The position numbers were made by a program, and so were the translations under genes. The notes under the pieces were generated by a model. The model did no database searches. It was not told the origin of the DNA and worked only from the letters and a program-made list of their open reading frames with translations. Below, one piece after another: positions 825 through 14,055 of a stretch of DNA of 14,055 nucleotides; position 1 is the first letter of the stretch; the number at the start of each line of letters is the position of its first letter. The stretch is from a virus (taxonomy: Duplodnaviria; Heunggongvirae; Uroviricota; Caudoviricetes): the IMG/VR virus record IMGVR_UViG_2690316097_000008; one strand, written 5' to 3'.

Positions 825-2678
825 TTATGATGATGCCGGTGCATTTATCTCCAGCACCAGACTTTCTATCTCAACGCCATACGCTGCATTTTTGGTAATA
901 TCCGTCAGCGTCAGCGCATTCAGCCCCAGTGTCAGACTGTCTTTTATGACCTGGAATGCCGGGCCAGCCACTCCATTCAGTTTCGGAGTAACCGTGGCAC
1001 TGCCGGCGGTGAACACCAGCTCCAGCGTCAGCCAGTCGTTACTGTAATTCCCGAACTCGCCCAACTTTGTGTTTCCTGCTTTCTTGTGATGCATCAGATT
1101 CAGTTTGCCGTCTGTGGTCTGGGTGAAGAACGACATCAGGAACGGGTTACCAGTCCCGGTCATCGCCACGACGTCAGGTAACGCTACATCGGTATACAGA
1201 TAAATTCCCAGACCGAACTGGTTGTTGGTCAGTGCGCCTGACAGTCGAAACTTACAGCTCAGTCTGCCACCCCGTGTCAGCAGGGAGACTGCGTCATCCA
1301 CCGGGCGCGTCAGGGACCAGGCTTTATTGCTCTGCTTGGTGATCTTAAATACACCATCTGACAACTGAACTCCGCCATTCTTAATGCTCCAGCCCTGCGC
1401 AGCAGCGTCTCCGGCTGTCGGCAACAGGGAGATTGTGCGTATGGATGCATCTTCAGACGGCCCCGATGGCGTGTCGCCGCCGGGCGAGGGTTTGATTTCC
1501 GGTGCCTTACCACTAATGAAGGCTAAGGTGCGACCGGCTACGTTCAGAATAGCAGTTGCCATACGATCGGGAATAATGCCACGACGCGCCCATGAGCTGA
1601 AATGCGTCGGGCGATTTGATGATACCCAGTTTTTGTTCGTTCGGGATGCCGAACCGTAATAACCAGACCCGGCAATATCAGGATCTTCTGACGGGTTGTT
1701 TGTCGGTGTATTAACTCCGCTACCATCGGTCATAAAGGGAACAAAATAAATCTGCTGGGATTCTTTACCTTTATATGCACCATATACCACTTCATATTGC
1801 GTACCGTGTTCTTGTTTCCACGCGTATGTCGTGTCGCCACAAATCCAGGGGACTGATGCCGGACTTCCACCGTGACACTGCGCCGCCAGCCCGGCAAGGT
1901 CAGCACGGAACTGCTGTACCATTGCAAGAAATGCTGCTGGCTGCTGGGCGTAACTGGCATTCGTCATATCGAATTCCCCCTGCATCCAGCATATCGCCAG
2001 CAAAACGTTTTTCGGGTTTTTCTGCAATGCTGCCTTCGTGCGGAAAAGCAGATCCTGATATAACGGCTTACCCACTCCCCAGCGAGCCGAATCCTGACTG
2101 GCCCCCGTGGACTCGCTGAATGTCCCCTCCGTGCCCTGGGTGAATGCCGAACCACCACAACAGCATGGTACCAGCAGGATCCCCGCATTATTAGGGATAT
2201 ACGGAAGCAGTTTTTTGGCAATATGTAAGCCCTGTCCGACACAGCCGTACTGCCCTTTGCTCAGGTCAGCCCGGGGATGGTTAATCGTACTCATATCCTG
2301 AACATCATGCAGACAATGGTCAGCAGGAATGATGTCGTTAAATACGCATACTTCACCACCGGGAGTCACTGTGTTACGACGGGCCAGTTGCTTAATGCGC
2401 GGATGGGGCGCATCGTATGAATCCGGAAGCGGAAGACCTTCACCGTAAGCCATGGCATTGGATTGCCCGGCCAGTACGATGACGTAGTACCACTCCGGCT
2501 CAGTTGCACCACTGACGACCACATCACCTTCTGCTGCAATCGCCTGCATCAGGGTATAAGGGGTTATGGCCACCGGACTACCAAACGGCTGCCAGCCCTC
2601 CTTCAGTTTTTGTGTCAGTCGTTTCGCAAGGTCTGACGGCGATGCCGCCCTGACCACGTCATAGTGTTTAAATGCCAT
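825..2678 (-). CDS. nanS-p: Prophage sialate 9-O-acetylesterase NanS-p (N-terminal DUF1737-like region plus SGNH/SASA esterase domain)
   Basis: 617-aa ORF with ATG at 2678 and GGGAGGA 5 nt upstream. The block YYVIVLAGQSNAMAYGEGLPLPDSYDAPHPRIKQLARR...DIIPADHCLHDVQDMS...LLVPCCCGGSAFTQG...WMQGEFD matches recalled E. coli NanS/YjhS including the GQSN catalytic motif. Location upstream of the lysis genes is typical for lambdoid and Stx prophages. Confidence 0.9.
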   Translation of the reverse strand: MAFKHYDVVRAASPSDLAKRLTQKLKEGWQPFGSPVAITPYTLMQAIAAEGDVVVSGATEPEWYYVIVLAGQSNAMAYGEGLPLPDSYDAPHPRIKQLARRNTVTPGGEVCVFNDIIPADHCLHDVQDMSTINHPRADLSKGQYGCVGQGLHIAKKLLPYIPNNAGILLVPCCCGGSAFTQGTEGTFSESTGASQDSARWGVGKPLYQDLLFRTKAALQKNPKNVLLAICWMQGEFDMTNASYAQQPAAFLAMVQQFRADLAGLAAQCHGGSPASVPWICGDTTYAWKQEHGTQYEVVYGAYKGKESQQIYFVPFMTDGSGVNTPTNNPSEDPDIAGSGYYGSASRTNKNWVSSNRPTHFSSWARRGIIPDRMATAILNVAGRTLAFISGKAPEIKPSPGGDTPSGPSEDASIRTISLLPTAGDAAAQGWSIKNGGVQLSDGVFKITKQSNKAWSLTRPVDDAVSLLTRGGRLSCKFRLSGALTNNQFGLGIYLYTDVALPDVVAMTGTGNPFLMSFFTQTTDGKLNLMHHKKAGNTKLGEFGNYSNDWLTLELVFTAGSATVTPKLNGVAGPAFQVIKDSLTLGLNALTLTDITKNAAYGVEIESLVLEINAPASS

Positions 2679-2870
2679 GAATCCTCCCGGCCGGGATAAT
2701 ATTGTGAGTAAAATAAGGAGCGGGCTGAAGTCCGGAAGTTACAGGACAATGGCAGAAGAGAGACGACAGCCCGCAATTCGAAAAAGACCGCGCAGTTGCG
2801 CAGAGTGATTACTATGGGGTATTATTCGCCAGCTGAAATATTACTTCACGTTTTATTGTTTATTCCTTGC

Positions 2871-2900
2871 CGCCCGCGTCTCCCAGCGCGGGCTTTTTTT
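2871..2900 (+). terminator. Intrinsic terminator-like hairpin followed by T7 on the plus strand
   Basis: gcccgcg-tctcccag-cgcgggc at 2872..2893 followed by ttttttt at 2894..2900. Confidence 0.45.
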
Positions 2901-2909
2901 GCCCACAAG

Positions 2910-2935
2910 AAAACCCCTCCGGAGAGGGGCTAAAG
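2910..2935 (-). terminator. Terminator-like hairpin (cccctc-cgga-gagggg) with U-rich tail on the minus strand
   Basis: Stem-loop at 2914..2929; the minus-strand transcript reads ...cccctctccggagggg then ttttctt. A near-identical hairpin recurs at 4222..4239. Confidence 0.4.
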
Positions 2936-2987
2936 CCGCGTATCTGTATCATCATGCACATGGTGCCGGGTGCCTCCCGGTGAGTTC

Positions 2988-3111
2988 NNNNNNNNNNNNN
3001 NNNNNNNNNNNNNNNNNNNNNNNNNNNNNNNNNNNNNNNNNNNNNNNNNNNNNNNNNNNNNNNNNNNNNNNNNNNNNNNNNNNNNNNNNNNNNNNNNNNN
3101 NNNNNNNNNNN
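2988..3111. other. Run of N (124 nt), assembly gap or masked sequence
   Basis: Direct observation. It is flanked by sequence repeated at 4264..4288 on one side and by a second nanS-p start on the other. Confidence 1.
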
Positions 3112-3133
3112 CATCATAGTGTTTAAATGCCAT
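3112..3133 (-). pseudogene. 5' end of a second nanS-p-like gene, interrupted by the N run
   Basis: Reverse complement reads ATGGCATTTAAACACTATGATG = MAFKHYD, matching the nanS-p start at 2678..2657, with a GGTGGAAAG RBS-like sequence upstream. Confidence 0.5.
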
Positions 3134-3326
3134 GGTTCTTTCCACCATCTGAAAAATAATTCTTTAAAATACCTGACATGTAATACAGAAAAAACACAAA
3201 ACCATACCTTAAATAAAAACCTGATTATCAAGCAGATATGCATGGATAAACTACAAGACGAGATATAAACCACCCTGCATTTAAATAAACAATAAACAAC
3301 ATCAGAAAAATAATTCTGCTCTATGG

Positions 3327-3353
3327 TTTACATTCAAAAATATCATTTATACT
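3327..3353 (+). promoter_or_regulatory. Candidate sigma70 promoter for the AT-rich plus-strand ORF
   Basis: TTTACA at 3327..3332, 15-nt spacer, TATACT at 3348..3353, about 40 nt upstream of the ATG at 3394. Sequence-only prediction in AT-rich DNA, so the false-positive risk is high. Confidence 0.3.
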
Positions 3354-3393
3354 TTTCAGAACATCACCAGCAAGGCATAAACAAGGAAACTAA

Positions 3394-3729
3394 ATGAAGT
3401 GGATTGTGATTGATACAGTTATCCAGCCATCATGCGGAATATCTTTTTCAGTCATATGGAGTAAAATAAAATTAATAATCTGGTATCAATCGGATGCTTT
3501 CTTACCTCCTGAAAGTATATTTACACTGACTCACACAGGCATCATGCTCAATAACAAAGTGCTACCTGTAACCATTTACAACGTAGTACCATTCAATAAA
3601 ACATTCTGGAATTCAATCAAAAATAGCCAGGAATGCCCTACAAATACAGATAACGTATTGAATGAATGCTTTAATAACCGTTGCACTCTGCAAATATGTC
3701 CTTATGGACTAAAACAACAAAGTCCATAA
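3394..3729 (+). CDS. Hypothetical protein, AT-rich ORF of 111 aa with a Cys-rich C-terminus
   Basis: ORF with AAGGAAA Shine-Dalgarno 6-7 nt before the ATG. It is opposite in orientation to every other prophage gene here and its stop codon lies inside the 3699..3732 hairpin. No recognised family. Confidence 0.4.
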
Positions 3730-3765
3730 GGAGTTTACTCACATCTGACAAAATCAATATAAACA
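3582..3765. repeat. Direct repeat, copy 1 (3' part of the AT-rich ORF plus hairpin); copy 2 at 4046..4217
   Basis: 184 bp near-identical to 4046..4217 except that the hairpin loop is inverted. Copy 2 is preceded by N runs. Confidence 0.9.
3699..3732. repeat. Perfect 12-bp stem hairpin (tccttatggact / agtccataagga) with loop aaaacaacaa
   Basis: Direct observation; the loop is the exact reverse complement of the loop in copy 2. Confidence 0.9.
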
Positions 3766-3977
3766 NNNNNNNNNNNNNNNNNNNNNNNNNNNNNNNNNNN
3801 NNNNNNNNNNNNNNNNNNNNNNNNNNNNNNNNNNNNNNNNNNNNNNNNNNNNNNNNNNNNNNNNNNNNNNNNNNNNNNNNNNNNNNNNNNNNNNNNNNNN
3901 NNNNNNNNNNNNNNNNNNNNNNNNNNNNNNNNNNNNNNNNNNNNNNNNNNNNNNNNNNNNNNNNNNNNNNNNNNNNN
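3766..3977. other. Run of N (212 nt)
   Basis: Direct observation. Confidence 1.
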
Positions 3978-4003
3978 AAAAAGGCCCACCGGAGCGGATG
4001 GGC

Positions 4004-4045
4004 NNNNNNNNNNNNNNNNNNNNNNNNNNNNNNNNNNNNNNNNNN
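4004..4045. other. Run of N (42 nt)
   Basis: Direct observation; the island 3978..4003 between the two N runs carries another ccgga-containing hairpin-like sequence. Confidence 1.
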
Positions 4046-4217
4046 CATTCAATAAAACATTCTGGAATTCAATCAAAAATAGCCAGGAATGCCCTACAAA
4101 TACAGATAACGTATTGAATGAATGCTTTAATAACCGTTGCACTCTGCAAATATGTCCTTATGGACTTTGTTGTTTTAGTCCATAAGGAGTTTACTCACAT
4201 CTGACAAAATCAATATA
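4046..4217. repeat. Direct repeat, copy 2 of 3582..3765
   Basis: Near-identical to copy 1, then followed by the 4222..4239 hairpin. Confidence 0.9.
4155..4188. repeat. Same 12-bp stem hairpin as 3699..3732 but with the loop inverted (ttgttgtttt)
   Basis: Direct observation. Confidence 0.9.
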
Positions 4218-4444
4218 AACAGCCCCTCCGGAGAGGGGCTGGAGAGTGGCGCTATGTGCCATTGCATGGTGCCGGGTGCCTCCCGGTGAATTCAGTACCA
4301 GCACCTGAATCCGCGATTATCCCATATACCTACTCGCTGATTGCCCCTCCGCACAGGGGGATTCACCATGCCAGTTTCTTTTAACAAACTCCCCGCAAAC
4401 CAGACAACAGTCAACCGCCTGAATTGTGAAGTATTTAAAAATTT

Positions 4445-4525
4445 CTCCCGCTAACTGATACCCGGCTAACAGTCTGGCGTTTTCTTTTTCAGCAACGGGA
4501 AAGCAACAACCACCACACCCGCCAC
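4445..4525. repeat. 81-bp direct repeat, copy 1 (copy 2 at 4599..4679), separated by a 73-nt N run
   Basis: ctcccgctaactgatacccggctaacagtctggcgttttctttttcagcaacgggaaagcaacaaccaccacacccgccac occurs twice. Confidence 0.9.
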
Positions 4526-4598
4526 NNNNNNNNNNNNNNNNNNNNNNNNNNNNNNNNNNNNNNNNNNNNNNNNNNNNNNNNNNNNNNNNNNNNNNNNN
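4526..4598. other. Run of N (73 nt)
   Basis: Direct observation. Confidence 1.
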
Positions 4599-4679
4599 CT
4601 CCCGCTAACTGATACCCGGCTAACAGTCTGGCGTTTTCTTTTTCAGCAACGGGAAAGCAACAACCACCACACCCGCCAC
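4599..4679. repeat. 81-bp direct repeat, copy 2
   Basis: Identical to 4445..4525. Confidence 0.9.
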
Positions 4680-4786
4680 CAGCACACCGTCAGCCAGCAC
4701 TGACATTATCCGGCTGCTGCAATGCCATTCACAAAAACAGTAAGCAATCACTTTTTACCGTAACAGGTGATAATCCAGATATGTAT

Positions 4787-5113
4787 CTACCCCAGATGAG
4801 TAATCCGAAGTTCATCCATACCACAGGTCCTGGCTATTCTGTTGTACTCCTGAACAAGAGCAAATAATTCTGAATTAGCAACCATGAACTCATCGCAAAC
4901 CCTCTGTATAGCATCACTATTCAGAATAATAACGTCTCTTCCCGAAAGACGATCAGGAGTACAGAACAAAACTGTCAAACGGCTGAAGGCCTTTGCTCGT
5001 GCTGCATTGACTATATCAATACGCTGCCTAAGGATGAAACACCCCGACGCCTCATCAATATTCACTCTACCCACACCATATGAATGATAAATATTTAATG
5101 CTGAAAAAACCAT
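4787..5113 (-). CDS. Hypothetical ORF in the position occupied by stxAB in Stx phages; coding status uncertain
   Basis: Track ORF 4787..5140 starts at TTG; the first ATG is at 5113. Neither start has a convincing Shine-Dalgarno. Low-GC segment; no recognised family and no resemblance to Shiga toxin subunits as recalled. Confidence 0.3.
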   Translation of the reverse strand: MVFSALNIYHSYGVGRVNIDEASGCFILRQRIDIVNAARAKAFSRLTVLFCTPDRLSGRDVIILNSDAIQRVCDEFMVANSELFALVQEYNRIARTCGMDELRITHLG

Positions 5114-5250
5114 TAGACCGTATAACAAACACTCAATCAATACTTAACAGAACTTTTATTTTTGACAAACATAAAATATTTTCAACAATATCCTGAGCCA
5201 GGTATATTTCAGTATAAGGCTCTGCCGGAAGGAATCTGGAAGAATGAATA

Positions 5251-5327
5251 TGGCGCGCTGTACTGGATTCGAACCAGTGACCGATTGCTTAGAAGGCAAT
5301 TGCTCTGTCCGGCTGAGCTAACAACGC
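5251..5327 (-). tRNA. argO: tRNA-Arg (anticodon UCU)
   Basis: Manual fold of the reverse complement: acceptor GCGTTGT/ACAGCGC, D-stem GCTC/GAGC, anticodon stem ATTGC/GCAAT with loop CTTCTAA, T-arm ACTGG-TTCGAAT-CCAGT, encoded CCA. The symbol is assigned by position in the recalled 933W ileZ-argN-argO order and is tentative. Confidence 0.8.
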
Positions 5328-5340
5328 ATGATGCAGATAA

Positions 5341-5417
5341 TGGACCGCCATCGGGGACTTGAACCCCGCGCAGCCAGCTTCGAAGGCTGGCGCTCTTTCC
5401 TGATGAGCTAATGGCGG
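5341..5417 (-). tRNA. argN: tRNA-Arg (anticodon UCG)
   Basis: Manual fold: acceptor CCGCCAT/ATGGCGG, D-stem GCTC/GAGC, anticodon stem CCAGC/GCTGG with loop CTTCGAA, T-arm CGGGG-TTCAAGT-CCCCG, encoded CCA. Symbol by position and tentative; a C1 5' base is unusual. Confidence 0.7.
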
Positions 5418-5424
5418 TATGTGA

Positions 5425-5500
5425 TGGTGGCCCTTGCTGGATTTGAACCAGCGACCTGGCGATTATGAGTCGCTCGCTCTCACCACTGAGCTAAAGGGCC
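5425..5500 (-). tRNA. ileZ: tRNA-Ile2 (anticodon CAU, lysidine-type; could also be read as tRNA-Met)
   Basis: Reverse complement GGCCCTTTAGCTCAGTGGTGAGAGCGAGCGACTCATAATCGCCAGGTCGCTGGTTCAAATCCAGCAAGGGCCACCA is close to recalled E. coli ileX/ileY; anticodon loop CTCATAA. Confidence 0.8.
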
Positions 5501-5540
5501 GGGAGCCGCATAATAACGACGCGTAATTAATTCTTCAATA

Positions 5541-6599
5541 TCATCCGTTCTGGCTGACTAAATCCTGTACTTCCCGAACCGTCTGCTCAAAACGTTCAGT
5601 CTCCAGCTCAACGCCAATTGCACGACGCCCGAGCGCCAGTGCCGCTTTCACTGTCGAACCCAACCCCATGAAAAAATCTGCAATCAGGTCACCCGGACGA
5701 CTGCTAGCGCTGATTATCTGCTGCAGCATTTCTGCCGGTTTTTCGCACGGATGTTTCCCGGGATAGAACTGCACCGGTTTATGCGTCCACACATCGGTAT
5801 ACGGCACCTGCACCGTCACGCCAAAATACCGCCGCAGATGTTTATATTCACTCAGCAGCTCCGCATACTGCCGGTTCAGTGAGGTATACGTATCCACCAG
5901 CTGGTGGTGGAGCTTTTCCAGTTCACCACGCCGATGCTTCTCTTCTGCCACCCGGGCAAACAGCGCCTGTAATTTCAGATAATCGCTTTCATTCGGCAAC
6001 TGCCACTGACCGGCACTGAACCAGTGCGACACCATGTTTTTCTTTCCTGTGGCATCTGCAATCTGTTTTGCCGTTATCCCCAGGGCAGCTCGCGCATCAC
6101 GAAAGTAAGAAATCAGCGGGGCCATCACATGCTGTTTCAGTGCACTGCCCTTCGCCGCATACCCGGCATCTTTCGGACGATACGGCCCCTGATAATGTTC
6201 CGCGAACAGAATGCGCTCTGTGGCGGGGAAATACGCCCGCAGGCTTTCCTTGTTGCATCCGTTCCAGCGTCCGGACGGCTTCGCCCAGATAATATGGTTC
6301 AGCACACTGAAGCGTTCACGCATCATGATTTCGATATCAGATGCCAGGCGATGACCACAGAACAGGTAAAGACTTCCGGCAGGTTTCAGCACCCGCCAGA
6401 ACTGCGCCAGACACTGGTCCAGCCACTTCAGGTAATCATCGTCGCCCTTCCACTGGTTATCCCAGCCCTCAGGCTTCACTTTAAAGTACGGCGGGTCCGT
6501 GACTATCAGGTCAACAGAATTTTCGGGTAACGACCGGATAAATTCCAGGCAGTCGGCGTTGATTAACTCACAACTGGATATTTTTACAGCATTAAGCAT
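5541..6599 (-). CDS. Orphan DNA methyltransferase (beta-class; N6-adenine or N4-cytosine)
   Basis: 352-aa ORF with ATG start. DLIVTDPPY catalytic motif near the N-terminus and FFMGLGST (FxGxG AdoMet motif) near the C-terminus give the motif IV-before-I order of beta-class amino-MTases. No restriction endonuclease gene is adjacent. Weak Shine-Dalgarno. Confidence 0.85.
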   Translation of the reverse strand: MLNAVKISSCELINADCLEFIRSLPENSVDLIVTDPPYFKVKPEGWDNQWKGDDDYLKWLDQCLAQFWRVLKPAGSLYLFCGHRLASDIEIMMRERFSVLNHIIWAKPSGRWNGCNKESLRAYFPATERILFAEHYQGPYRPKDAGYAAKGSALKQHVMAPLISYFRDARAALGITAKQIADATGKKNMVSHWFSAGQWQLPNESDYLKLQALFARVAEEKHRRGELEKLHHQLVDTYTSLNRQYAELLSEYKHLRRYFGVTVQVPYTDVWTHKPVQFYPGKHPCEKPAEMLQQIISASSRPGDLIADFFMGLGSTVKAALALGRRAIGVELETERFEQTVREVQDLVSQNG

Positions 6600-6691
6600 G
6601 GATCATTAAGCCTGTCTCTGATAGGCTCATTCTGCTTTTGCGCAAAGCAGTGGGCCTGAGGTTTGCTTGTGAACCCAACGCATGAGCAGAT

Positions 6692-6722
6692 GGCTGGTGG
6701 GTGCCCCTAACACCCACCAGCC
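6692..6722 (-). other. Very stable hairpin, 12-bp perfect GC-rich stem with 7-nt loop, in the HTH-MTase intergenic region
   Basis: ggctggtgggtg-cccctaa-cacccaccagcc. No U-tract follows on the minus strand, so it is not a classic intrinsic terminator. Confidence 0.6.
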
Positions 6723-6735
6723 GCCCATTTACCAC

Positions 6736-6763
6736 AAATAAAAAAGCCTTCACTGCGGAAGGC
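6736..6763 (-). terminator. Intrinsic terminator downstream of the small HTH ORF
   Basis: Minus-strand RNA reads gccuuc-cgcagu-gaaggc followed by uuuuuuauuug; the hairpin overlaps the ORF stop codon. Confidence 0.6.
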
Positions 6764-6947
6764 GTCTGTAACAACCGAACTGATAGTCTGCCAGACCCGC
6801 CATAACCAGCTGGGTCAGTATTAACTGGCAGCGTTCGCGTGAAAGGTAAGTATTCTGCGCTATCTCCCCGACTGTCGCCGGTTCGGTAACGCTTAATTCA
6901 TTAAACACCACTCTGGCGGTTTCTGTCATATCCTGCTGTTTTAGCAT
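6750..6947 (-). CDS. Small helix-turn-helix protein (65 aa), putative transcriptional regulator
   Basis: ATG with AAGGAAAAG Shine-Dalgarno 6-7 nt upstream. The segment TVGEIAQNTYLSRERCQLILTQL has HTH character. It lies between the pR'/tR' region and the MTase. Confidence 0.6.
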   Translation of the reverse strand: MLKQQDMTETARVVFNELSVTEPATVGEIAQNTYLSRERCQLILTQLVMAGLADYQFGCYRRLPQ

Positions 6948-7063
6948 GTCTTTTCCTTTTCCGGTTAACGTGACACACCAATAACTCTTGTCGAAAAAGC
7001 CAGCAAGCTGAAAGACAGGTATTCACCGCCACCAGCGCGTTTACTGTACTGACGCGATTTCAG

Positions 7064-7091
7064 TCATAAAAAACCCGCTCGGCGGCGGGTT
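7064..7091 (-). terminator. tR'-like intrinsic terminator about 40-65 nt downstream of the late promoter start site
   Basis: Minus-strand RNA reads aacccgc-cgccga-gcggguu followed by uuuuuuaug (plus-strand hairpin 7072..7091 preceded by ataaaaaa). Confidence 0.6.
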
Positions 7092-7126
7092 GTAGAAACT
7101 CTTCTAACGTCAGGCATAAAACGCCC

Positions 7127-7166
7127 ATCGTTATGACGAATTTACCACAGATTCCGGAAAAATCAA
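7127..7166 (-). promoter_or_regulatory. pR'-like late promoter with lambda-type promoter-proximal pause element (Q utilisation region)
   Basis: Minus strand: -35 TTGATT (7166..7161), 16-nt spacer, -10 TAAATT (7144..7139), then CGTCAT and AACGATGGG at about +1..+9. Recalled lambda pR' is TTGACT...TAAATT TGACTC AACGATGGG. It starts 5 nt after the Q stop codon. Confidence 0.65.
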
Positions 7167-7171
7167 CCTTG

Positions 7172-7993
7172 TTACCTAGTTACCTTTTTTAACTGCCGCT
7201 CAGCCCATGCTTCTTCAATATCAAACCGGGTCACCAGCGCATCATAGAATTTCTTAACTGTTTTTTCCCATGACGCGCGTGTTATCTGGTTTGTCACCTC
7301 GCATATAGCATTAAATGCCTCCGTTGATGGTAGTCTTTCATAGCCACGACCACCACAACGCTGGCAGTCTCTGATAACAGGCATACCACGTTTTACCGAC
7401 TCTTCACGATGAATGGCGACACCACGCCCACGGCAATCCTTACAGGCGGTGGAAACCTCACCCTTTCCGCCACACTCCGGACAGGCAACTTTTACCACCT
7501 CCCTGACTTTTTTCCATTCTTCCCAGTAAGACGGATACACACCTTTCGTACACTTTGCCCATACCGGCGGCTTACCATCCGGATACTGGATCTTGTTTGT
7601 AAAAACCTCGCTTTCAATAAATTTTTTTCCGTGACAGCAGGGGCACTGTTTTTTGCTCGCCGCGCTACGGGCATAATCTTCAAACGCATACGAAGCCATA
7701 ATACGCATCACTGCCGGTTTTATTTCTGCCGGGAGTTTTCTTAACGCCGCCACGCGATCACACCGACTGAGTGCATATTCTGTCAGCAATTCTGTTGCCC
7801 GCTCTCTGTCATTCATACTAATGCCCATTTTCCCAAGGAACGCAGAAACCCCCATCTCAGCCCGATTCTGTGTCATGCCCTGCGCGGCCATCACATCAGT
7901 GATACTCAGCGCATCTTTCGACGTTGAGGCCGATGCATCAGTCAGGCCGGGGGATTTTGGGGAGTAGTATTTCGGTAAATCTTCCAGTTTCAT
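7172..7993 (-). CDS. Q: Late-gene antiterminator Q (QuuQ/Qin-type, zinc-binding), copy 1
   Basis: 273-aa ORF. N-terminus MKLEDLPKYYSPKSP...SITDVMAAQGM and C-terminus ...QLKKVTR match recalled E. coli QuuQ, with several CxxC pairs. Its start overlaps the rusA stop (ATGA) and the pR' promoter follows immediately downstream. Confidence 0.8.
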   Translation of the reverse strand: MKLEDLPKYYSPKSPGLTDASASTSKDALSITDVMAAQGMTQNRAEMGVSAFLGKMGISMNDRERATELLTEYALSRCDRVAALRKLPAEIKPAVMRIMASYAFEDYARSAASKKQCPCCHGKKFIESEVFTNKIQYPDGKPPVWAKCTKGVYPSYWEEWKKVREVVKVACPECGGKGEVSTACKDCRGRGVAIHREESVKRGMPVIRDCQRCGGRGYERLPSTEAFNAICEVTNQITRASWEKTVKKFYDALVTRFDIEEAWAERQLKKVTR

Positions 7994-8095
7994 TTTTTGA
8001 CCTGCCCTTCAAGCATTATGGGATAAATCTTCACCCCCAGACGTCCACCAGATACTGGCTGAGCACGAACGATATTGATTTCATCAAACTGCTCA
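7990..8095 (-). pseudogene. rusA: rusA 3' fragment (about 35 C-terminal codons), cut off by the N run
   Basis: Near-identical to the 3' end of the rusA copies at 8849..8955 and 10592..10700. Confidence 0.6.
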
Positions 8096-8106
8096 NNNNN
8101 NNNNNN
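8096..8106. other. Run of N (11 nt) at a duplication junction
   Basis: Separates the rusA 3' fragment from sequence internal to Q copy 2. Confidence 1.
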
Positions 8107-8852
8107 AATTTCTTAACTGTTTTTTCCCATGACGCGCGTGTTATCTGGTTTGTCACCTCGCATATAGCATTAAATGCCTCCGTTGATGGTAGTCTTTCAT
8201 AGCCACGACCACCACAACGCTGGCAGTCTCTGATAACAGGCATACCACGTTTTACCGACTCTTCACGATGAATGGCGACACCACGCCCACGGCAATCCTT
8301 ACAGGCGGTGGAAACCTCACCCTTTCCGCCACACTCCGGACAGGCAACTTTTACCACCTCCCTGACTTTTTTCCATTCTTCCCAGTAAGACGGATACACA
8401 CCTTTCGTACACTTTGCCCATACCGGCGGCTTACCATCCGGATACTGGACCTTGTTTGTAAAAACTACGCTTTCAATAAATTTTTCCCCATAGCAACAAG
8501 GGCACTGCTTTTTACTCGCTGCGCTGCGGGCATAATCCTCAAAAGCGTACGAAGCCATAATGCGCATCACTACCGGTTTTATTTCTGCCGGAAGTTTTCT
8601 CAACGCCGCCACACGATCGCACCGACTGAGTGCATAATCTGCCAGTAATTCTGTTGCCCGCGCCCTGTCATTCATACTGATGCCCATTTTCCCCAGGAAC
8701 GCAGAAAACCCCATCTCAGCCCGATTCTGTGTCATGCCCTGCGCGGCCATCACATCAGTGATACTCAGCGCATCTTTTGACGTTGAGGCCGATGCATCGG
8801 TCAGGCAAGGGGATTTTGGGGAGTAGTATTTCGGTAAATCTTCCAGTTTCAT
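8107..8852 (-). CDS. Q: Antiterminator Q, copy 2; the last ~25 codons are missing at the N-run junction
   Basis: About 96% amino-acid identity to copy 1 over about 248 residues, with scattered substitutions (G16C, V49F, E64A, H118Y and others), so it is a distinct paralog and not an exact duplicate. The track ORF 8031..8852 reads through the Ns into the rusA fragment. Confidence 0.75.
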
Positions 8853-9223
8853 TTTTTGACCTGCTCTTCATGCATTATGGGGTAAATCTTCACCCCCAGA
8901 CGTCCACCAGATACTGGCTGAGCACGAACGATATTGATTTCATCAAACTGCTCATCGTCCATTAACACTCCCGCATGTGTCAGTGCATCCAGTGGTGCTT
9001 TCAGGATATTGTCCAGGTCACGACGGCGCTTATCCGGTGGCTCTGCAATAATCTTTATCGCCAGTCTTCCGGACAGGCTTAATTTCAGTCGCTGCTGACG
9101 GACAATAAGCGCCACATCCCGGCGATAACGCTCACCGGCTTTTGATACAAAATATGTGTTGTCACGACGTCGCCAGTAAGTATTCACCGTCGGCGGATAA
9201 GGTAAAATAAACTCATGGCGCAT
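8849..9223 (-). CDS. rusA: Holliday junction resolvase RusA
   Basis: 124-aa ORF with ATG start. LPYPPTVNTYWRRR...PDKRRRDLDNILKAPLDALT matches the recalled RusA family including the catalytic Asp cluster. Its stop overlaps the Q start. Confidence 0.85.
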   Translation of the reverse strand: MRHEFILPYPPTVNTYWRRRDNTYFVSKAGERYRRDVALIVRQQRLKLSLSGRLAIKIIAEPPDKRRRDLDNILKAPLDALTHAGVLMDDEQFDEINIVRAQPVSGGRLGVKIYPIMHEEQVKK

Positions 9224-9480
9224 CAGCGCAGCACCTCCTGCACCAGTTTTTCAAACTTTCCGACTCTGGTTTCCAGCTCTGCCACACAGTCCACCAGCTC
9301 ATCTACTGCTTTCTGTGCGCGATGCTTCGCCTGCATCAGTTCCCGAAGCGCGGGTACCATATCTTTACGGATAGCGTCTTTTGTTATGCCCGTTTTTTCG
9401 AGTTGTTCAGCATGACGCAGCATTTCCTGCGCGTGTTTACGCAATTGTTCAGGGGTAAAAGTCATTGTCTGGTTGTTCAA
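9223..9480 (-). CDS. Hypothetical small phage protein, predicted helical
   Basis: Track start at 9480 is TTG with GGAG 9 nt upstream; the first ATG is at 9465 with no Shine-Dalgarno. Its stop overlaps the rusA start by 1 nt. Confidence 0.55.
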   Translation of the reverse strand: MNNQTMTFTPEQLRKHAQEMLRHAEQLEKTGITKDAIRKDMVPALRELMQAKHRAQKAVDELVDCVAELETRVGKFEKLVQEVLR

Positions 9481-9691
9481 AAGAAACGCTCCATCTTACT
9501 GCTGTCAGTTCGTTTATTACTGTATCTGCGCGGATTGCCGGGCTTCATGGGAGTGGAAAGCACCCGTGCACTTTCCTGGTCCACAGGCAGAAAATGTCCG
9601 TAGACTGGCCCCCTGAATCTCCAGACAACCAGTATCACTTAAATAAGTGATAGTCTTAATACTAGTTTTTAGACTAGTCATTGGAGTACAG

Positions 9692-10057
9692 ATGATTGAT
9701 GTCTTAGGGCCGGAGAAACGCAGACGGCGTACCACACAGGAAAAGATCGCAATTGTTCAGCAGAGCTTTGAACCGGGGATGACGGTCTCCCTCGTTGCCC
9801 GGCAACATGGTGTAGCAGCCAGCCAGTTATTTCTCTGGCGTAAGCAATACCAGGAAGGAAGTCTTACTGCTGTCGCCGCCGGAGAACAGGTTGTTCCTGC
9901 CTCTGAACTTGCTGCCGCCATGAAGCAGATTAAAGAACTCCAGCGCCTGCTCGGCAAGAAAACGATGGAAAATGAACTCCTCAAAGAAGCCGTTGAATAT
10001 GGACGGGCAAAAAAGTGGATAGCGCACGCGCCCTTATTGCCCGGGGATGGGGAGTAA
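9692..10057 (+). CDS. insC: IS2 transposase OrfA (InsC)
   Basis: [56 protein letters not shown]... matches recalled IS2 InsC; 121 aa from the ATG at 9692. Confidence 0.9.
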
Positions 10058-10431
10058 GCTTAGTCAGCCGTTGTCTCCGGGTGTCGCGTGCGCAGTTGCA
10101 CGTCATTCTCAGACGAACCGATGACTGGATGGATGGCCGCCGCAGTCGTCACACTGATGATACGGATGTGCTTCTCCGTATACACCATGTTATCGGAGAG
10201 CTGCCCACGTATGGTTATCGTCGGGTATGGGCGCTGCTTCGCAGACAGGCAGAACTTGATGGTATGCCTGCGATCAATGCCAAACGTGTTTACCGGATCA
10301 TGCGCCAGAATGCGCTGTTGCTTGAGCGAAAACCTGCTGTACCGCCATCGAAACGGGCACATACAGGCAGAGTGGCCGTGAAAGAAAGCAATCAGCGATG
10401 GTGCTCTGACGGGTTCGAGTTCTGCTGTGAT
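10015..10431 (+). pseudogene. insD: IS2 transposase OrfB (InsD), N-terminal part only
   Basis: The orfB frame reads ...[44 protein letters not shown]...[14 protein letters not shown] and then meets the N at 10432 and unrelated phage sequence. Confidence 0.75.
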
Positions 10432-10432
10432 N

Positions 10433-10595
10433 TCCCCAGGAACGCAGAAAACCCCATCTCAGCCCGATTCTGTGTCATGCCCTGCGCGGCCATCACATCA
10501 GTGATACTCAGCGCATCTTTCGACGTTGAGGCCGATGCATCAGTCAGGCCGGGGGATTTTGGGGAGTAGTATTTCGGTAAATCTTCCAGTTTCAT
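10433..10595 (-). pseudogene. Q: Antiterminator Q, N-terminal 54-codon fragment (copy 3), abutting the truncated IS2
   Basis: MKLEDLPKYYSPKSPGLTDASASTSKDALSITDVMAAQGMTQNRAEMGFSAFLG; the DNA matches copies 1 and 2 from about 10433 onward. Confidence 0.7.
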
Positions 10596-10972
10596 TTTTT
10601 GACCTGCCCTTCAAGCATTATGGGATAAATCTTCACCCCCAGACGTCCACCAGATACTGGCTGAGCACGAACGATATTGATTTCATCAAACTGCTCATCG
10701 TCCATTAGCAACCCCGCATGCGTCAGCGCATCCAGCGGCGCTTTCAGAATATTGTCCAGGTCACGGCGGCGCTTATCCGGTGGTTCTGCAATAATTTTTA
10801 TTGCCAACCTTCCGGACAGGCTTAATTTCAGCCGCTGCTGGCGAACAATAAGCGCCACTGCCCGGCGATAACGCTCCCCGGCTTTTGATACAAAATATGT
10901 GCTGCCACGACGACGCCAGTAAGTGTTCACCGTCGGCGGGTAAGGTAAAACAAATTCTATGCGCTCGGTCAT
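10592..10972 (-). CDS. rusA: Holliday junction resolvase RusA (second full copy)
   Basis: 126 aa, about 93% identical to the copy at 8849..9223. Its ATG directly follows the stop of the upstream DUF968-like ORF. Confidence 0.85.
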   Translation of the reverse strand: MTERIEFVLPYPPTVNTYWRRRGSTYFVSKAGERYRRAVALIVRQQRLKLSLSGRLAIKIIAEPPDKRRRDLDNILKAPLDALTHAGLLMDDEQFDEINIVRAQPVSGGRLGVKIYPIMLEGQVKK

Positions 10973-12031
10973 TTATGCTTTCCACTTCAGAACACCCGAA
11001 TTTCTCGCGTGCATTAAAAAACGAATCAGCAACAACAGCTGACTGCCGTGTTTCTCTTCAAAATCTTTTACTCCGGCATGTAGTTCGTTACGGCATTTAC
11101 GGCATAACGGAATAACAAACAAATCATCAGCCTTTGTTCCCATCCCTCCCAGTCCATGACCAATGATGTGATGCGGATCATCTGCCTGATTGCCACACGT
11201 CATGCATTTCTGCGTTTTTACCCAGCGCGTGTATACAGGCATCTCTTCCCGTTGTGATTTCTGGCGCTGGAGATACTGAGCCGGTGACTCCGGATCAACG
11301 GCAATGCTGACCACCGTCTTTTCCTGTGGTGGGTTCTGTTGCTGGTGGACGTGAGGCAGTAACGCAATATTTTTTGTGCGCTGCTTCAGTATGCTGGTGG
11401 CTGTCTGCTCTCCCGGTATGATGTCGCTTTCACTGTACACAGAGCGAATTTTTTCCGCACGCAACCCCAGCGAACGACGTAATACCGCTTCCGGTAGCGC
11501 GTCCGCCACCTGATTGCGGACCGCCCACCAGGATAATTCAGCCAGAGATAATTCACGCTCCTGCGTACCGCTTATTGCGTGACCGATGACGTCAATCATC
11601 CATGCTGACAGGTTTTGATGAGCAAGTTGCTCGAGTGATTCGGATGTCTGGTCACGCAGCTGGTTGTCGCAGTGCCAGCACAACACCATTGCGCCGGTAC
11701 CATAACGGTGAATGACGGTTTCGCTGTGATGATAATCGCCGTGTGGCCACTGGCAGGATTTAATATGGCGCAACAGCCAGTCAGACAATGCACCAGCACC
11801 ACCAGCAGCACGAATCACCCGTGCGTTACTGAAAAACGGCAGCAATGTTTTGTCTTCCACCAGCGGCTGGCGAGCGGCAGGAACGACCCCGGACGGCAGA
11901 TTACGCATGCTTTTTGGTTCCGGCTCCACCAGTATTCTGCCGTTATGGAATGCTGACATTGATTCACGGCCTGGCTTAACGATAACCAGACCGAGTTCCG
12001 GTACCAGAACAGGTCGAAGTAATACCCGCAC
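10973..12031 (-). CDS. Lambdoid prophage DUF968-family protein (YdfU-like) with a C-terminal Cys/His HNH-like motif
   Basis: 352-aa ORF. The C-terminus CMTCGNQADDPHHIIGHGLGG...LCRKCRNELH is zinc-finger/HNH-like. Position upstream of rusA-Q matches the Qin ydfU position. The start codon is GTG with GGAGG 4 nt upstream and overlaps the upstream ORF stop. Confidence 0.7.
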   Translation of the reverse strand: MRVLLRPVLVPELGLVIVKPGRESMSAFHNGRILVEPEPKSMRNLPSGVVPAARQPLVEDKTLLPFFSNARVIRAAGGAGALSDWLLRHIKSCQWPHGDYHHSETVIHRYGTGAMVLCWHCDNQLRDQTSESLEQLAHQNLSAWMIDVIGHAISGTQERELSLAELSWWAVRNQVADALPEAVLRRSLGLRAEKIRSVYSESDIIPGEQTATSILKQRTKNIALLPHVHQQQNPPQEKTVVSIAVDPESPAQYLQRQKSQREEMPVYTRWVKTQKCMTCGNQADDPHHIIGHGLGGMGTKADDLFVIPLCRKCRNELHAGVKDFEEKHGSQLLLLIRFLMHARNSGVLKWKA

Positions 12032-12032
12032 A

Positions 12033-12311
12033 TTACCTCCAGATCCGTTGCTGGAATGTGCGGGACGGACGCGTTGGCCGTTCGGAGTAAGGGAGCCTGA
12101 CGGAGATTATCCAGTGACGGTAGTCGAGGCTAAGGGCTTTTTTAACCTCGCATCCGCGCCTGCGGTAACACTGAATGAGCCATTCGGCCTGTTCTTCAGT
12201 GCATGGGGGATGCTGGTACCAATCAGATTTAAATGCGTGAGAGCGCCGCCCGTGCCTGCTGGCAAAGACGGCTGAATTATCAGAATTGTGTAGTCTGGAA
12301 TTTTGCGCCAT
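12033..12311 (-). CDS. Hypothetical Arg-rich small protein (92 aa)
   Basis: ATG with GGAGAAAG Shine-Dalgarno; translationally coupled to the DUF968-like ORF. No family recognised. Confidence 0.5.
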   Translation of the reverse strand: MAQNSRLHNSDNSAVFASRHGRRSHAFKSDWYQHPPCTEEQAEWLIQCYRRRGCEVKKALSLDYRHWIISVRLPYSERPTRPSRTFQQRIWR

Positions 12312-12377
12312 CGGCTTTCTCCGGTGGCACAGTGTTACTCAACAGGGGTTCAGCCCTGCGCTGAATTGTAGATGAAT

Positions 12378-12638
12378 TCACTCATCTTCAAAAGCAGAAA
12401 AACCAGCCTTAATCCCAGCTTCTTTCAGAGACGGCAACGATGTGACAAATTCATTTGCACGCGAAATAAAACCATCCGTCACAAGCCCATCCACAAAATG
12501 AATTAACGCAGCTCCACTCTTCCTTTGTTGAGACTGTAAACATTTAATACGGCAGTGGCTGACAATAGCGCCATTCTCAACGCGCACAGTATAGAGGCCA
12601 TCTTCACTAAAAATTTCACGTAATTCTTCGATTTTCAT
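12378..12638 (-). CDS. Hypothetical small protein (86 aa from the ATG)
   Basis: ATG at 12638 with GGAAGGA Shine-Dalgarno 8 nt upstream. It sits between hokD and the DUF968-like gene, the slot occupied by rem in the K-12 Qin prophage; the product was not compared with Rem. Confidence 0.55.
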   Translation of the reverse strand: MKIEELREIFSEDGLYTVRVENGAIVSHCRIKCLQSQQRKSGAALIHFVDGLVTDGFISRANEFVTSLPSLKEAGIKAGFSAFEDE

Positions 12639-12754
12639 CAACAGAATCCTTCCAGATAAATAGCACTCCCCTGTTCGGGGTCCATCCCTCTTCTCCCTGC
12701 GCGCTACTTAAGTATTTTTGATTCTATTCCGGCACCATCTAAAACTTCAAACGC

Positions 12755-12790
12755 GTTGAAAATAAAAACAAAAACCCGCCGAAGCGGGTT
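12755..12790 (-). terminator. Intrinsic terminator downstream of hok
   Basis: Minus-strand RNA reads aacccgc-uucg-gcggguu followed by uuuguuuuuauuuu. Confidence 0.65.
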
Positions 12791-12858
12791 AAGTGTGGGT
12801 GCATTGAGGATGCCTGACCCATCAGAGGTGGCGAGGGATTTCTCCCCCGCCTGGTCTC

Positions 12859-13014
12859 TTACTCCTCAGGTTCGTAAGCTGTGAAGACAGCGACCTCCGT
12901 CTGGCCGGTTCGAATTCGTACCTCGCAGAGGTCTTTCCTCGTTACCAGTGCCGTCACTATGACGGTTAAACAGATGACGATCAGGGCGATTAACATCGCC
13001 TTTTGCTGCTTCAT
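12859..13014 (-). CDS. hokD: Hok/Gef-family type I toxin, HokD (RelF)-like, 51 aa
   Basis: MKQQKAMLIALIVICLTVIVTALVTRKDLCEVRIRTGQTEVAVFTAYEPEE matches recalled E. coli HokD. AGGAG lies 9 nt upstream of the ATG at 13014. The track ORF extends in frame to an ATG at 13071 with its own GAGG. Confidence 0.85.
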   Translation of the reverse strand: MKQQKAMLIALIVICLTVIVTALVTRKDLCEVRIRTGQTEVAVFTAYEPEE

Positions 13015-13305
13015 AGCCTGCTTCTCCTTGCCTTTCGGCACGTAAGAGGCTAACCTAGATTTGCCGTTCATAGATTGAGCCTCAGATTAATGTTAAGCGT
13101 CTTGCCGGACGCGTAATGTTAACTGGGGCTTTTCTCTATCTGCCTTTTGGTGTTCATGCCTGAGACAGATAGCCTCAAGCACCCGCTGCAATTCTACTTA
13201 ACTCTCCTTTTCCCGCAAACCGTTTTTATCCCCAGCGGCAAATCGAATACACCACCAGCGCCACCGCCATCGCAATTCCTACCGTTGTTAATGCTTCAGG
13301 CCAGG

Positions 13306-13650
13306 TCATCGTAAAATATCCTCCACGCTTATCAGTCCGTTCCGCTCCAGATAACTCATCGCCTTATCCGGTAATTTGCAGTCTGGCTTCGCTTTTCTCA
13401 GTTGCCAGGTTAACTGCTTTACCAGCATGGTTAACTCATCGACCAGACGCTGATATCCCACTGGTTTGTATTCATGCAATTTACCGGCTGGCTCTGCTGC
13501 CAGCGATACCAGTGCGATTTCCAGAACAGCAATATCCATCTTATATGTGCGGATGATGTCATGGTCGATTGTGCCCGGTATGCACAGTCTCTGTGCTTCA
13601 ATAGTCTCCTCTGCGTGAGCTATTAACTGCTCTCTGGTAAAAGTCGTCAT
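13306..13650 (-). CDS. Hypothetical phage protein (114 aa)
   Basis: ATG overlaps the stop of the upstream 55-aa ORF (ATGA). Its N-terminal half is paralogous to that ORF. Confidence 0.6.
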
Positions 13651-13814
13651 GCCGTAGCCCCTTCTTGATATTTTTCAAACCAGAACACAACCGGCTCTGC
13701 TTCCAGCGATGCCAGCGCAATCCGTGCCAGTTCCATTTGTTCACCACGGGTAAGCCCGTTTTCAAGCGGGTTTTTAATGAACAATTCAATACGTTCTTTG
13801 GTAATAGTGGTCAT
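13647..13814 (-). CDS. Hypothetical small protein (55 aa), paralog of the N-terminal half of the 114-aa protein
   Basis: Manually translated: [55 protein letters not shown], with AAGGAG 6 nt upstream of the ATG at 13814. Absent from the ORF track because it is under 60 aa. Confidence 0.55.
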
Positions 13815-13824
13815 GTGTTACTCC

Positions 13825-14055
13825 TTAACCCGCAGTGCTTTCAACTGATGAGGGGAACAAAATCTTTTCATCAAACCCTGCATTCATATCATGAACAGCA
13901 ACACACCAATCCATCGACGAACGATTATCAAGAGCCTCCATGATTTCATCCATGCGGCGTAGGTCATACAGGTAAATGCTTTTATCGCCAATGGTGTAAA
14001 AGCCAATTTTTTTCGGTGATGGATGAGGTGTACTGGCAATAGCGGACACTACCAT
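13825..14055 (-). CDS. Hypothetical protein, ORF reaching the window end (possibly N-terminally truncated)
   Basis: ORF with ATG at the last window bases; upstream context is not visible. Same strand and tight spacing with the downstream small ORFs. Confidence 0.4.
   Translation of the reverse strand: MVVSAIASTPHPSPKKIGFYTIGDKSIYLYDLRRMDEIMEALDNRSSMDWCVAVHDMNAGFDEKILFPSSVESTAG

Follow-up and report, generated by a model that had tools for sequence, protein, structure and literature searches.

The 14,055-nt stretch of DNA analysed here in full, referred to as the window, includes an apparent series of three modules formed by rusA and the gene for the antitermination protein Q, and this raises the question of whether the modules stand in series in a genome or were placed in one line by the assembly. 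The window is the entire contig CXBK01000127.1 of assembly GCA_001257435.1, a draft scaffold with N joins. It is identical over 14055 nt to the sequence that we call L090, and its nearest finished relatives are Shigella sonnei chromosomes. We consider it highly probable that the three rusA-Q modules in series are a scaffolding error, by which pieces of two look-alike prophages, named X and Y here, were interleaved in a draft S. sonnei assembly.

All genes described below lie on the minus strand with the exception of IS2, which is on the plus strand. The X piece of scaffold segment S5 (5259-8095) includes three tRNA genes, a DNA methylase gene (5541-6599, PF01555), a 65-aa ORF (6750-6947), the gene for Q1, a complete 273-aa antitermination protein Q of the X allele (7172-7993; PF03589, E=1.6e-53, 179 bits), and the last 106 nt of rusA3, which end the contig as a 3′ tail (7990-8095) identical to nucleotides 10592-10697. 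Two sequences match this piece at 99.76% identity: the IMG/VR contig L044, which is free of N, and the X locus of S. sonnei 53G (HE616528.1). A scaffold gap of 11 N (8096-8106) separates it from Q2, the Y allele, from which the last 25 codons are missing (8107-8852; PF03589, E=2.6e-46, 156 bits); both Q1 and Q2 score above the PF03589 gathering cut-off of 26.7 bits. Next to Q2 are rusA2 of Y (8849-9223, PF05866) and an 85-aa ORF of prophage Y (9223-9480), for which no Pfam match reached the cut-off and whose exact protein adjoins RusA-Q in finished chromosomes. Then come the 124 nt (9477-9600) that remain, at the 3′ end, of the DnaB-type replicative helicase gene of Y, which IS2 has interrupted, and 831 of the approximately 1331 nt of IS2 counted from its left terminus (9601-10431), which match annotated IS2 at 99.8% identity. 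A single N at 10432 then leads to a 5′ fragment of Q (10433-10595), which duplicates nucleotides 7831-7993 of Q1, to rusA3 (10592-10972, PF05866) and to a DUF968 gene (10973-12031; PF06147, E=2.6e-62), the latter two being the genes that in X truly lie upstream of and next to Q1. By sequence comparison rather than a Pfam scan, the 54-aa third Q fragment equals residues 1-54 of Q1 except for V49F. Further N runs are located at 2988-3111, 3766-3977, 4004-4045 and 4526-4598. The first-pass annotation had placed the Q genes (including the Q2 that lacks its C-terminus), the rusA and DUF968 genes, the small ORF, IS2 and both N joints correctly; the helicase remnant was absent from it.

The repeats within the window are far above chance (BLAST E-values from 0 to 1e-136). 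Copies 1 and 2 show 38 differences in 848 nt (4.5%), copies 2 and 3 differ by 6.8% over 533 nt, and copies 1 and 3 by two nucleotides in 265, both of them at or before nucleotide 19 of copy 3. These figures, together with the uneven placement of the differences, replace the 3-4% divergence at scattered positions that had been described. The first 343 nt shared by copies 1 and 2 (7248-7590, equal to 8107-8449) are a block identical in X and Y with zero mismatches, all 38 differences fall in 7591-8023, and none is found in 8024-8095. Within Q, the abrupt border between 0% and 8.7% divergence records a genuine past exchange among lambdoid phages, that is, ordinary mosaicism. Copies 1 and 3 agree fully from 10452 on, nucleotides 7850-8095 matching 10452-10697 without a mismatch.

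The loci to which these copies belong can be recognized in finished chromosomes. The order in X is DUF968-rusA3-Q1-65aa-methylase-tRNAs, continuing to an SASA esterase and a holin, and the order in Y is IS2-helicase remnant-85aa-rusA2-Q2-tRNAs-DUF3927-IraM. Both share the canonical order of the lambdoid late-regulatory module of E. coli and Shigella prophages (DUF968-rusA-Q, then tRNA and lysis genes) with overlapping start and stop codons of rusA and Q; Y differs in having helicase-85aa-rusA-Q instead, and once the pieces are untangled there is otherwise no difference. In the two finished chromosomes CP104423.1 and CBDDMI010000001.1, X and Y are approximately 660 kb apart. The Q1 module occupies nucleotides 1,858,805-1,869,626 of the former and 1,821,342-1,832,163 of the latter, and the 85aa-rusA-Q2 module nucleotides 2,525,238-2,541,495 and 2,482,373-2,498,630, respectively. 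This is the location of the copies in separate prophages, in related finished S. sonnei chromosomes, that had been named beforehand as the observation that would speak against a tandem. The exact Q1 protein is always found in finished chromosomes within one DUF968-RusA-Q-65aa-methylase module, and the exact RusA3 protein lies in a single module in all ten long contigs among the matches listed. The 53G X locus matches nucleotides 10433-14055 at 99.92% identity, and Y loci in finished chromosomes match nucleotides 8107-9759 at 99.8-99.9%. At Y loci Q is full-length, with 284 aa in finished chromosomes and 273 aa in contigs L099 and L105; its truncation in the window thus appears, from these comparisons, to be the start of a contig and no cut in the genome, as the gene is complete in finished genomes.

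Removal of the interposed piece restores a known arrangement. If nucleotides 8096-10697 are left out, the window has one DUF968-rusA-Q-methylase set, in the same layout as finished chromosomes. The 3131-nt sequence obtained by splicing 6600-8095 to 10698-12332 is found as one N-free piece in L044 with 99.97% identity, is 99.8-99.9% identical to the X locus of 53G, and aligns over at least 80% of its length at a single site in 1493 complete E. coli genomes. For the unspliced 14-kb window, none of 5426 such genomes gives this coverage at a single site. In sister contigs L009 and L007, Q1 leads at 100% identity into the full rusA3-DUF968. In sister and finished sequences nucleotide 8095 of the window continues directly into 10698; nucleotides 7990-8095 and 10592-10697 represent one and the same DNA, and copy 3 repeats the end of copy 1 as an overlap.

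The joints themselves point to the same origin. Both novel joints (8096-8106 and 10432) consist of N and neither is spanned by any sequenced base; the first, from the X contig to the Y contig, is a false or unsupported join whose two sides share 848 nt when placed on the reference, and the second joins the IS2 repeat contig to the X contig. After the gaps that can be placed, the scaffold jumps backwards in reference-prophage coordinates by 23, 176, 81 and 848 nt, with another backward jump at 10433, where the overlap amounts to 265 nt (7831-8095 against 10433-10697) with the Y piece lying in between. The 81-nt duplicate of the window is merged in sister contig L011. The whole scaffold alternates between the two loci in the order X, Y, X (a 26-nt island), Y, Y switching to X, Y, and X. 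The breaks fall on the borders of sequence shared exactly by X and Y. Copy 2 begins at the first base of the 343-nt block (8107, equivalent to 7248), which in a finished chromosome is bounded by single-nucleotide differences at 7247 and 7591 and is the longest identical X/Y stretch within one finished chromosome; the longest exact identities are this block and one of 69 nt, both inside Q, and one of approximately 82 nt inside rusA. Copy 1 ends 10 nt short of the next X/Y difference, and sister contigs end at the same block borders (L011 at 7590 and L089 at 7248).

The apparent series could be generated by short-read assembly followed by scaffolding and gap filling. Because X and Y have exactly identical stretches, branches would arise in the assembly graph, with the 343-nt block acting as the repeat at a branch. 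A greedy scaffolder would then set X and Y contigs in one line with N between them, and the contig ends would presumably be lengthened into the assumed gaps up to the point where the reads of one copy conflicted with those of the other. The outcome would be overlapping ends of one X module (7172-8095 and 10433-12031), a Y module (8107-9600), and a multi-copy IS2 (9601-10431) truly abutting Y. Tools of the greedy Velvet/SSPACE/GapFiller type can make false joins and put N gaps between joined contigs (Page et al. 2016, PMC5320598), and the combination of Velvet, SSPACE and GapFiller produced 299 S. sonnei assemblies with a mean of 405 contigs, making it the most fragmented species there (PMC5320598). 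GCA_001257435.1 does not appear in one part of the supplement of that paper, where neighbouring S. sonnei accessions with the prefix CWW do, and we infer that the same SSPACE/GapFiller pipeline was used for it. With the false joins at repeats and the unclosed negative gaps of short-read scaffolds from pipelines of this type (Page et al. 2016, PMC5320598), the window shares N joints of estimated or unit length, overlaps across gaps, breaks at repeat borders or IS termini, and differing layouts in sisters; its regular alternation of two loci along 14 kb makes it an unusually clean example.

Related drafts carry similar joins. Seven sister contigs, drafts from the accession series of the window, have X and Y pieces joined via a single N, and in the sister scaffolds L088 and L089 the N is located exactly at the IS2 terminus. 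A search of IMG/VR for the pattern rusA tail, 11 nucleotides of any base and Q-internal sequence gave no match, although N stored literally may escape such a pattern. Contig L011 includes two versions of the tRNA-methylase region, with 100% and 99.6% identity to the window. Contig L089 carries one 2451-nt X stretch twice with zero mismatches, which is odd for an assembler that collapses repeats.

The existence of several such scaffolds could also be read as a real, clade-specific rearrangement, in which IS2-mediated or homologous recombination brought the Y part (IS2-helicase remnant-85aa-rusA2-Q2) into or beside X, so that two or three rusA-Q modules would truly be serial and the N would hide junctions that are hard to sequence. 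Six scaffolds of the same project agree in placing the X upstream piece beside IS2-Y, L089 has its two identical X stretches, and a Q gene split by IS2 exists in finished E. coli, for instance in CP148391.1 and CM142774.1. No finished genome represents the lineage with the exact rusA2 protein, which is found only in eight draft contigs, all of the same accession series, so that the finished genomes may be of other clades; isolates with the accession prefixes CXAW, CXFM, CXFS, CXDK, CXBJ, CXAU and CXFU carry this rusA2 allele. However, no scaffold has a sequenced junction and the N is always precisely at the joint. The break in Q1 beside the IS2 joint lies at 7831, 7892, 7248, 7602, 7788 and 7761 in six assemblies, unlike a fixed inherited junction, and the breaks fall on the borders of blocks exactly identical in X and Y. 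X restarts 265 nt before its stop, which is an overlap and no target-site duplication; that of IS2 is 5 bp, and to our knowledge 265 nt matches the target-site duplication of no transposition mechanism. The distance of some 660 kb between X and Y in related finished chromosomes, and the recurrence of the overlap-at-N pattern at unrelated places of the scaffold, also speak against such an event. We found neither sequenced junctions nor breakpoints shared among relatives, nor the tandem arrangement in finished genomes, and consider this rearrangement very unlikely. Equally slight is the chance that an IS2-associated event truly set the Y module beside X in this S. sonnei clade and that the draft scaffolds are an imperfect picture of it; if the rearrangement were true, the hybrid remnant formed from the two prophages would encode two serial Q antiterminators, both intact or almost so.

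The IS2 element in the window is incomplete. Its orfA (PF01527) is present, and of orfB only the N-terminal PF13276 (HTH_21) domain; the sequence is cut before the rve domain, which is missing together with the right terminus because the contig stops. The junction of IS2 with the helicase gene at 9600/9601 is real and occurs in six IMG/VR contigs. The intact helicase in CP065613.1 and UGBG01000002.1, to the 3′ end of whose coding sequence the remnant was aligned, is a protein of 463 aa. The junction at 9600/9601 has no match in the species-representative genomes of GTDB. GTDB places Shigella sonnei within E. coli, and as the closest relatives are S. sonnei the strain would not be a species representative, which fits the null result. 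In eight finished chromosomes IS21 interrupts IS2 at the position equivalent to 9759 of the window, and the part of IS2 past 9759 may derive, through gap filling, from IS2 copies elsewhere. The adjacency of IS2 and a Q fragment resembles the finished sequences CP148391.1 and CM142774.1. While those have a complete IS2 with Q halves on both sides and sequenced junctions, the IS2 of the window ends at its nucleotide 831 in the middle of orfB and is followed by N, and the Q fragment beside it duplicates one end of Q1, which is itself intact. A real insertion of IS2 into Q was also considered, and was rejected in view of the stop in the middle of IS2, the N on the IS2 terminus in sisters and the variable breaks in Q.

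Another possibility is that the scaffold strings together three true paralogues at separate Q-rusA loci, the third being in a prophage Z with a recombinant Q allele. The first-pass annotation had correctly noted that the third Q fragment combines copy-1 and copy-2 variants (G16 with F49), and the two versions of the tRNA-methylase region in L011 could be taken to indicate an additional locus. The two Y-type bases are, however, located in the first 19 nt of the contig, beside the N, and their combination is found only in this contig, in one of 24 informative occurrences of an X anchor, finished chromosomes and sister drafts included. The bases of copy 3 are of the Y type before the 69-nt identical block and of the X type after it, and from 10452 on the copy cannot be told from copy 1. 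In the tRNA region, the differing positions are concentrated at 5242-5258, where the scaffold switches from Y to X, as expected of a chimeric contig. A third prophage was thus rejected as the source of the mosaic fragment and of the variants at 5238-5258, the odd bases being at contig ends or switch points and unique to this assembly, and we regard three separate loci as extremely improbable.

Of the two origins proposed at first, the chimeric assembly of near-identical prophages is the one supported; a recombination hotspot driven by IS2 or homology with altered Q dosage lacks support, given joints made of N, breaks that vary among sisters, and a "recombinant" allele confined to a contig end. 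Q is represented in the genome by two alleles rather than three, without a tandem arrangement. The source genome most likely has two IS-riddled lambdoid prophage remnants, X and Y, as in finished relatives, from which we infer the layout in the strain behind GCA_001257435.1. This scaffold and at least six sister scaffolds, listed as viral genomes in IMG/VR (L006-L011), are chimeras of two prophage remnants, and inferences on gene dosage, synteny or recombination hotspots drawn from them would mislead. The chief value of the finding is in data hygiene: breaks exactly at the borders of identical blocks, overlaps flanked by N, and variants confined to contig ends are three fingerprints by which chimeric scaffolds could be flagged automatically. 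What is real is also ordinary, namely the presence of two mosaic Q alleles in one genome and an IS2 inserted in a prophage helicase gene, and the biology that remains is that of mosaic lambdoid Q alleles residing together and of IS insertions in decaying Shigella prophages.

The elements that the first-pass annotation had listed for this stretch were all found at their coordinates, and the genes were confirmed by Pfam. On the minus strand are the complete Q1 (7172..7993, 273 amino acids, PF03589), Q2 without its last 25 codons (8107..8852, PF03589), rusA2 (8849..9223, PF05866), rusA3 (10592..10972, PF05866), and a DUF968 gene (10973..12031, PF06147), to which we add 124 nt remaining from the 3′ end of a DnaB-type helicase gene (9477..9600), which were missing from that list. 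The N joints were also present, as was a truncated IS2 on the plus strand (9601..10431), which has its true left terminus at 9601, ends at nucleotide 831 of about 1331, and includes orfA (PF01527) and, by Pfam, only the N-terminal part of orfB. As for the arrangement of three rusA-Q modules in series, it is very probably not a real feature but the product of a chimeric scaffold.

A search with the exact rusA2 protein led to the 14,055-nt contig CXBK01000127.1 (GCA_001257435.1), whose retrieved stretch, 4046-14055, matches the window at 100% identity. The window has six N runs and is therefore a scaffold rather than a contig, and the two novel joints in the proposed tandem array, 8096-8106 and 10432, consist of N. 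When the window was aligned to a single prophage of a complete genome, the sequence after the placeable gaps stepped backwards by 23, 176, 81, and 848 nt. An exact 81-nt duplicate (4445-4525 and 4599-4679) flanks the 73-N run at 4526-4598, and in the sister contig L011, a draft of the same accession series, these flanks are merged into continuous sequence. This gap is therefore spurious, a negative gap, and unclosed negative gaps are thus a general property of this scaffold.

The copies can be assigned to two look-alike prophage remnants, X (DUF968-rusA3-Q1-65aa-methylase) and Y (helicase remnant-85aa-rusA2-Q2). Copy 1 (Q1 and a rusA tail) and copy 3 (the Q 5′ fragment and rusA3 from 10433) appear, from their sequence, to be the same gene of X, which restarts 265 nt before its stopping point, past the interposed Y and IS2 piece (10433 corresponds to 7831). 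Splicing 6600-8095 to 10698-12332 gives 3,131 nt that are found as one N-free piece in the IMG/VR contigs L044 (99.97% identity) and L054 (99.94%), and that align in one place with at least 80% coverage in 1493 complete E. coli genomes. Coverage of 80% was not reached by the unspliced 14-kb window in any of 5426 genomes, and by region 7000-11400 in only four genomes; the three of these that were inspected contained either a Q split by an IS or an IS2 at another site in the prophage. In L009 and L007, both sister contigs, Q1-type sequence continues directly into the full rusA3-DUF968 at 100% identity; the exact RusA3 lies in one DUF968-RusA-Q-65aa-methylase module in all ten long contigs among the matches listed, and the exact Q1 protein occurs in finished chromosomes including Shigella sonnei 53G (HE616528.1).

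Copies 1 and 3 differ at two sites only, both inside the first 19 nt of copy 3, and these are the source of the G16/F49 combination, which was reported correctly for the third Q fragment. A true third Q-rusA locus could account for it, but is the least probable of the explanations considered: copy-1 bases precede the X-type anchor (10521-10640) in 23 of the 24 occurrences that were informative, those in all sampled finished chromosomes among them, and the one occurrence of the "mosaic" bases is the window's own contig.

Copy 2 (the Q2/rusA2 piece from 8107) very probably belongs to the other prophage, Y. Nucleotides 8107-9759 match the second locus of finished S. sonnei chromosomes at 99.8-99.9% identity, where the order is IS2 (interrupted by IS21), helicase remnant, 85-aa ORF, rusA, full-length Q, tRNAs, DUF3927, and IraM. 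The two loci lie about 660 kb apart in CP104423.1 (X, 1,858,805-1,869,626; Y, 2,525,238-2,541,495) and CBDDMI010000001.1 (X, 1,821,342-1,832,163; Y, 2,482,373-2,498,630). In these finished relatives, though not by direct evidence from this isolate, the copies described as a tandem array thus lie in separate prophages, the result that the first-pass annotation had said would refute such an array. The IS2 insertion into the Y helicase gene, at its 3′ end, is real, the junction being seen in sister drafts and finished genomes. An IS21-family element splits this IS2 at the position equivalent to window 9759 in eight finished S. sonnei chromosomes (loci L096-L098 and L100-L104, at about 5661-7720) and three sister drafts; the IS2 is uninterrupted in N-bearing scaffolds only (the window, L088, L089, L091, and L009). 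Either the latter strains lack the IS21 insertion or other IS2 copies supplied the sequence that fills this IS2 past 9759.

The 3-4% divergence at scattered positions that had been reported is in fact uneven. Copies 1 and 2 are identical over the first 343 nt of copy 2 (8107-8449, equivalent to 7248-7590), all 38 differences fall in 7591-8023, and the final 72 nt are identical again. Within the Q 5′ 403 nt (7591-7993) 35 bases differ between the two alleles (8.7%), the 3′ 343 nt being identical. The two co-resident Q alleles are real, and so sharp an identity boundary between them is normal lambdoid mosaicism.

X and Y pieces alternate along the entire scaffold: 1-2987 is X (575-2987 100% identical to 53G); 3112-3765 is Y (100%); 3978-4003 is a 26-nt X island between two N runs amid Y material, present in 53G-type X loci and L044; 4046-4525 is identical to finished Y except for a flipped 10-nt hairpin loop found in this assembly only; 4599-5237 is Y (100% to finished Y); about 5259-8095 is X; 8107-9600 is Y; and 10433-14055 is X (99.92%). 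Segment 4599-8095 is chimeric though N-free, Y giving way to X at the border of a tRNA-Arg gene; save for 6590 and 7247, every difference from finished X falls within a cluster at 5242-5258. Base 7247 is the Y allele (G; finished X has A) in otherwise X sequence, directly left of the 343-nt block. Three tRNA genes (Arg-TCT, Arg-TCG, and one with a CAT anticodon called Met) lie within 5251-5500, downstream of Q and the methylase gene, as is usual in lambdoid prophages of E. coli and Shigella. The flipped loop is that of a hairpin whose 12-nt stems pair perfectly (GTCCTTATGGAC / GTCCATAAGGAC); the loop has opposite orientations in the hairpins at 3699-3732 and 4155-4188, which lie in overlapping contig ends to the two sides of the N runs at 3766-4045. 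The second orientation (4167-4176) is confined to this contig, and the first is present at 20 other loci, among them every finished Y locus. The flip is probably an artefact of sequencing or gap filling that was induced by the hairpin and kept the ends from merging; a real flip by template switching is less probable.

The breaks coincide with sequence common to X and Y. The longest exactly identical stretch in one finished chromosome is 343 nt (7248-7590), followed by one of 69 nt (7850-7918). The Y contig begins on the first base of the former (8107 corresponds to 7248), L011 terminates on its last base (7590), and the X piece of L089 terminates at 7248; the X contig ends at 8095, 10 nt short of the next X/Y difference, and in copy 3 the bases are of Y type ahead of the 69-nt block and of X type beyond it. 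The N of L088 and that of L089 fall exactly on the IS2 terminus, as expected of a collapsed multi-copy IS contig. Exact blocks common to the two paralogous remnants would create branch points in the assembly graph, a greedy scaffolder would chain X and Y contigs, and a gap filler would extend contig ends along the copy with dominant reads until reads disagree. This scheme fits the published description of the Velvet+SSPACE+GapFiller pipeline, which may have been used for GCA_001257435.1: N gaps are left at read-pair joins, false joins are explicitly warned of, and 299 assemblies of S. sonnei are listed, which have 405 contigs on average (PMC5320598).

A real clade-specific rearrangement placing the Y module beside X keeps a slim chance, slightly better than that of a third locus, because the exact rusA2 allele was found in no genomes other than eight drafts of this accession series. 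These drafts repeatedly set the X upstream piece next to IS2-Y, and L089 (CXFM01000154.1) carries an identical 2,451-nt X stretch (DUF968-rusA3-Q1) twice, at 841-3291 and 7096-9546, flanking a Y piece, a repeat that exceeds ordinary repeat resolution with short inserts. However, both novel joints are N, and the Q1 break beside the IS2 joint lies at 7831, 7892, 7248, 7602, 7788, or 7761 depending on the assembly, as would not be expected of a fixed, inherited junction.

Sister scaffolds L006-L011, which have single-N joins and interleave X and Y, are entered in IMG/VR as viral genomes (UViGs). One of them, L007, agrees with the NCBI draft contig CXDK01000149.1 in length, N positions, and window alignment, so that chimeras of this sort have reached a virus database. 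The only use of this scaffold is as a warning that scaffolds of its kind, several of them in IMG/VR as viral genomes, are chimeric.
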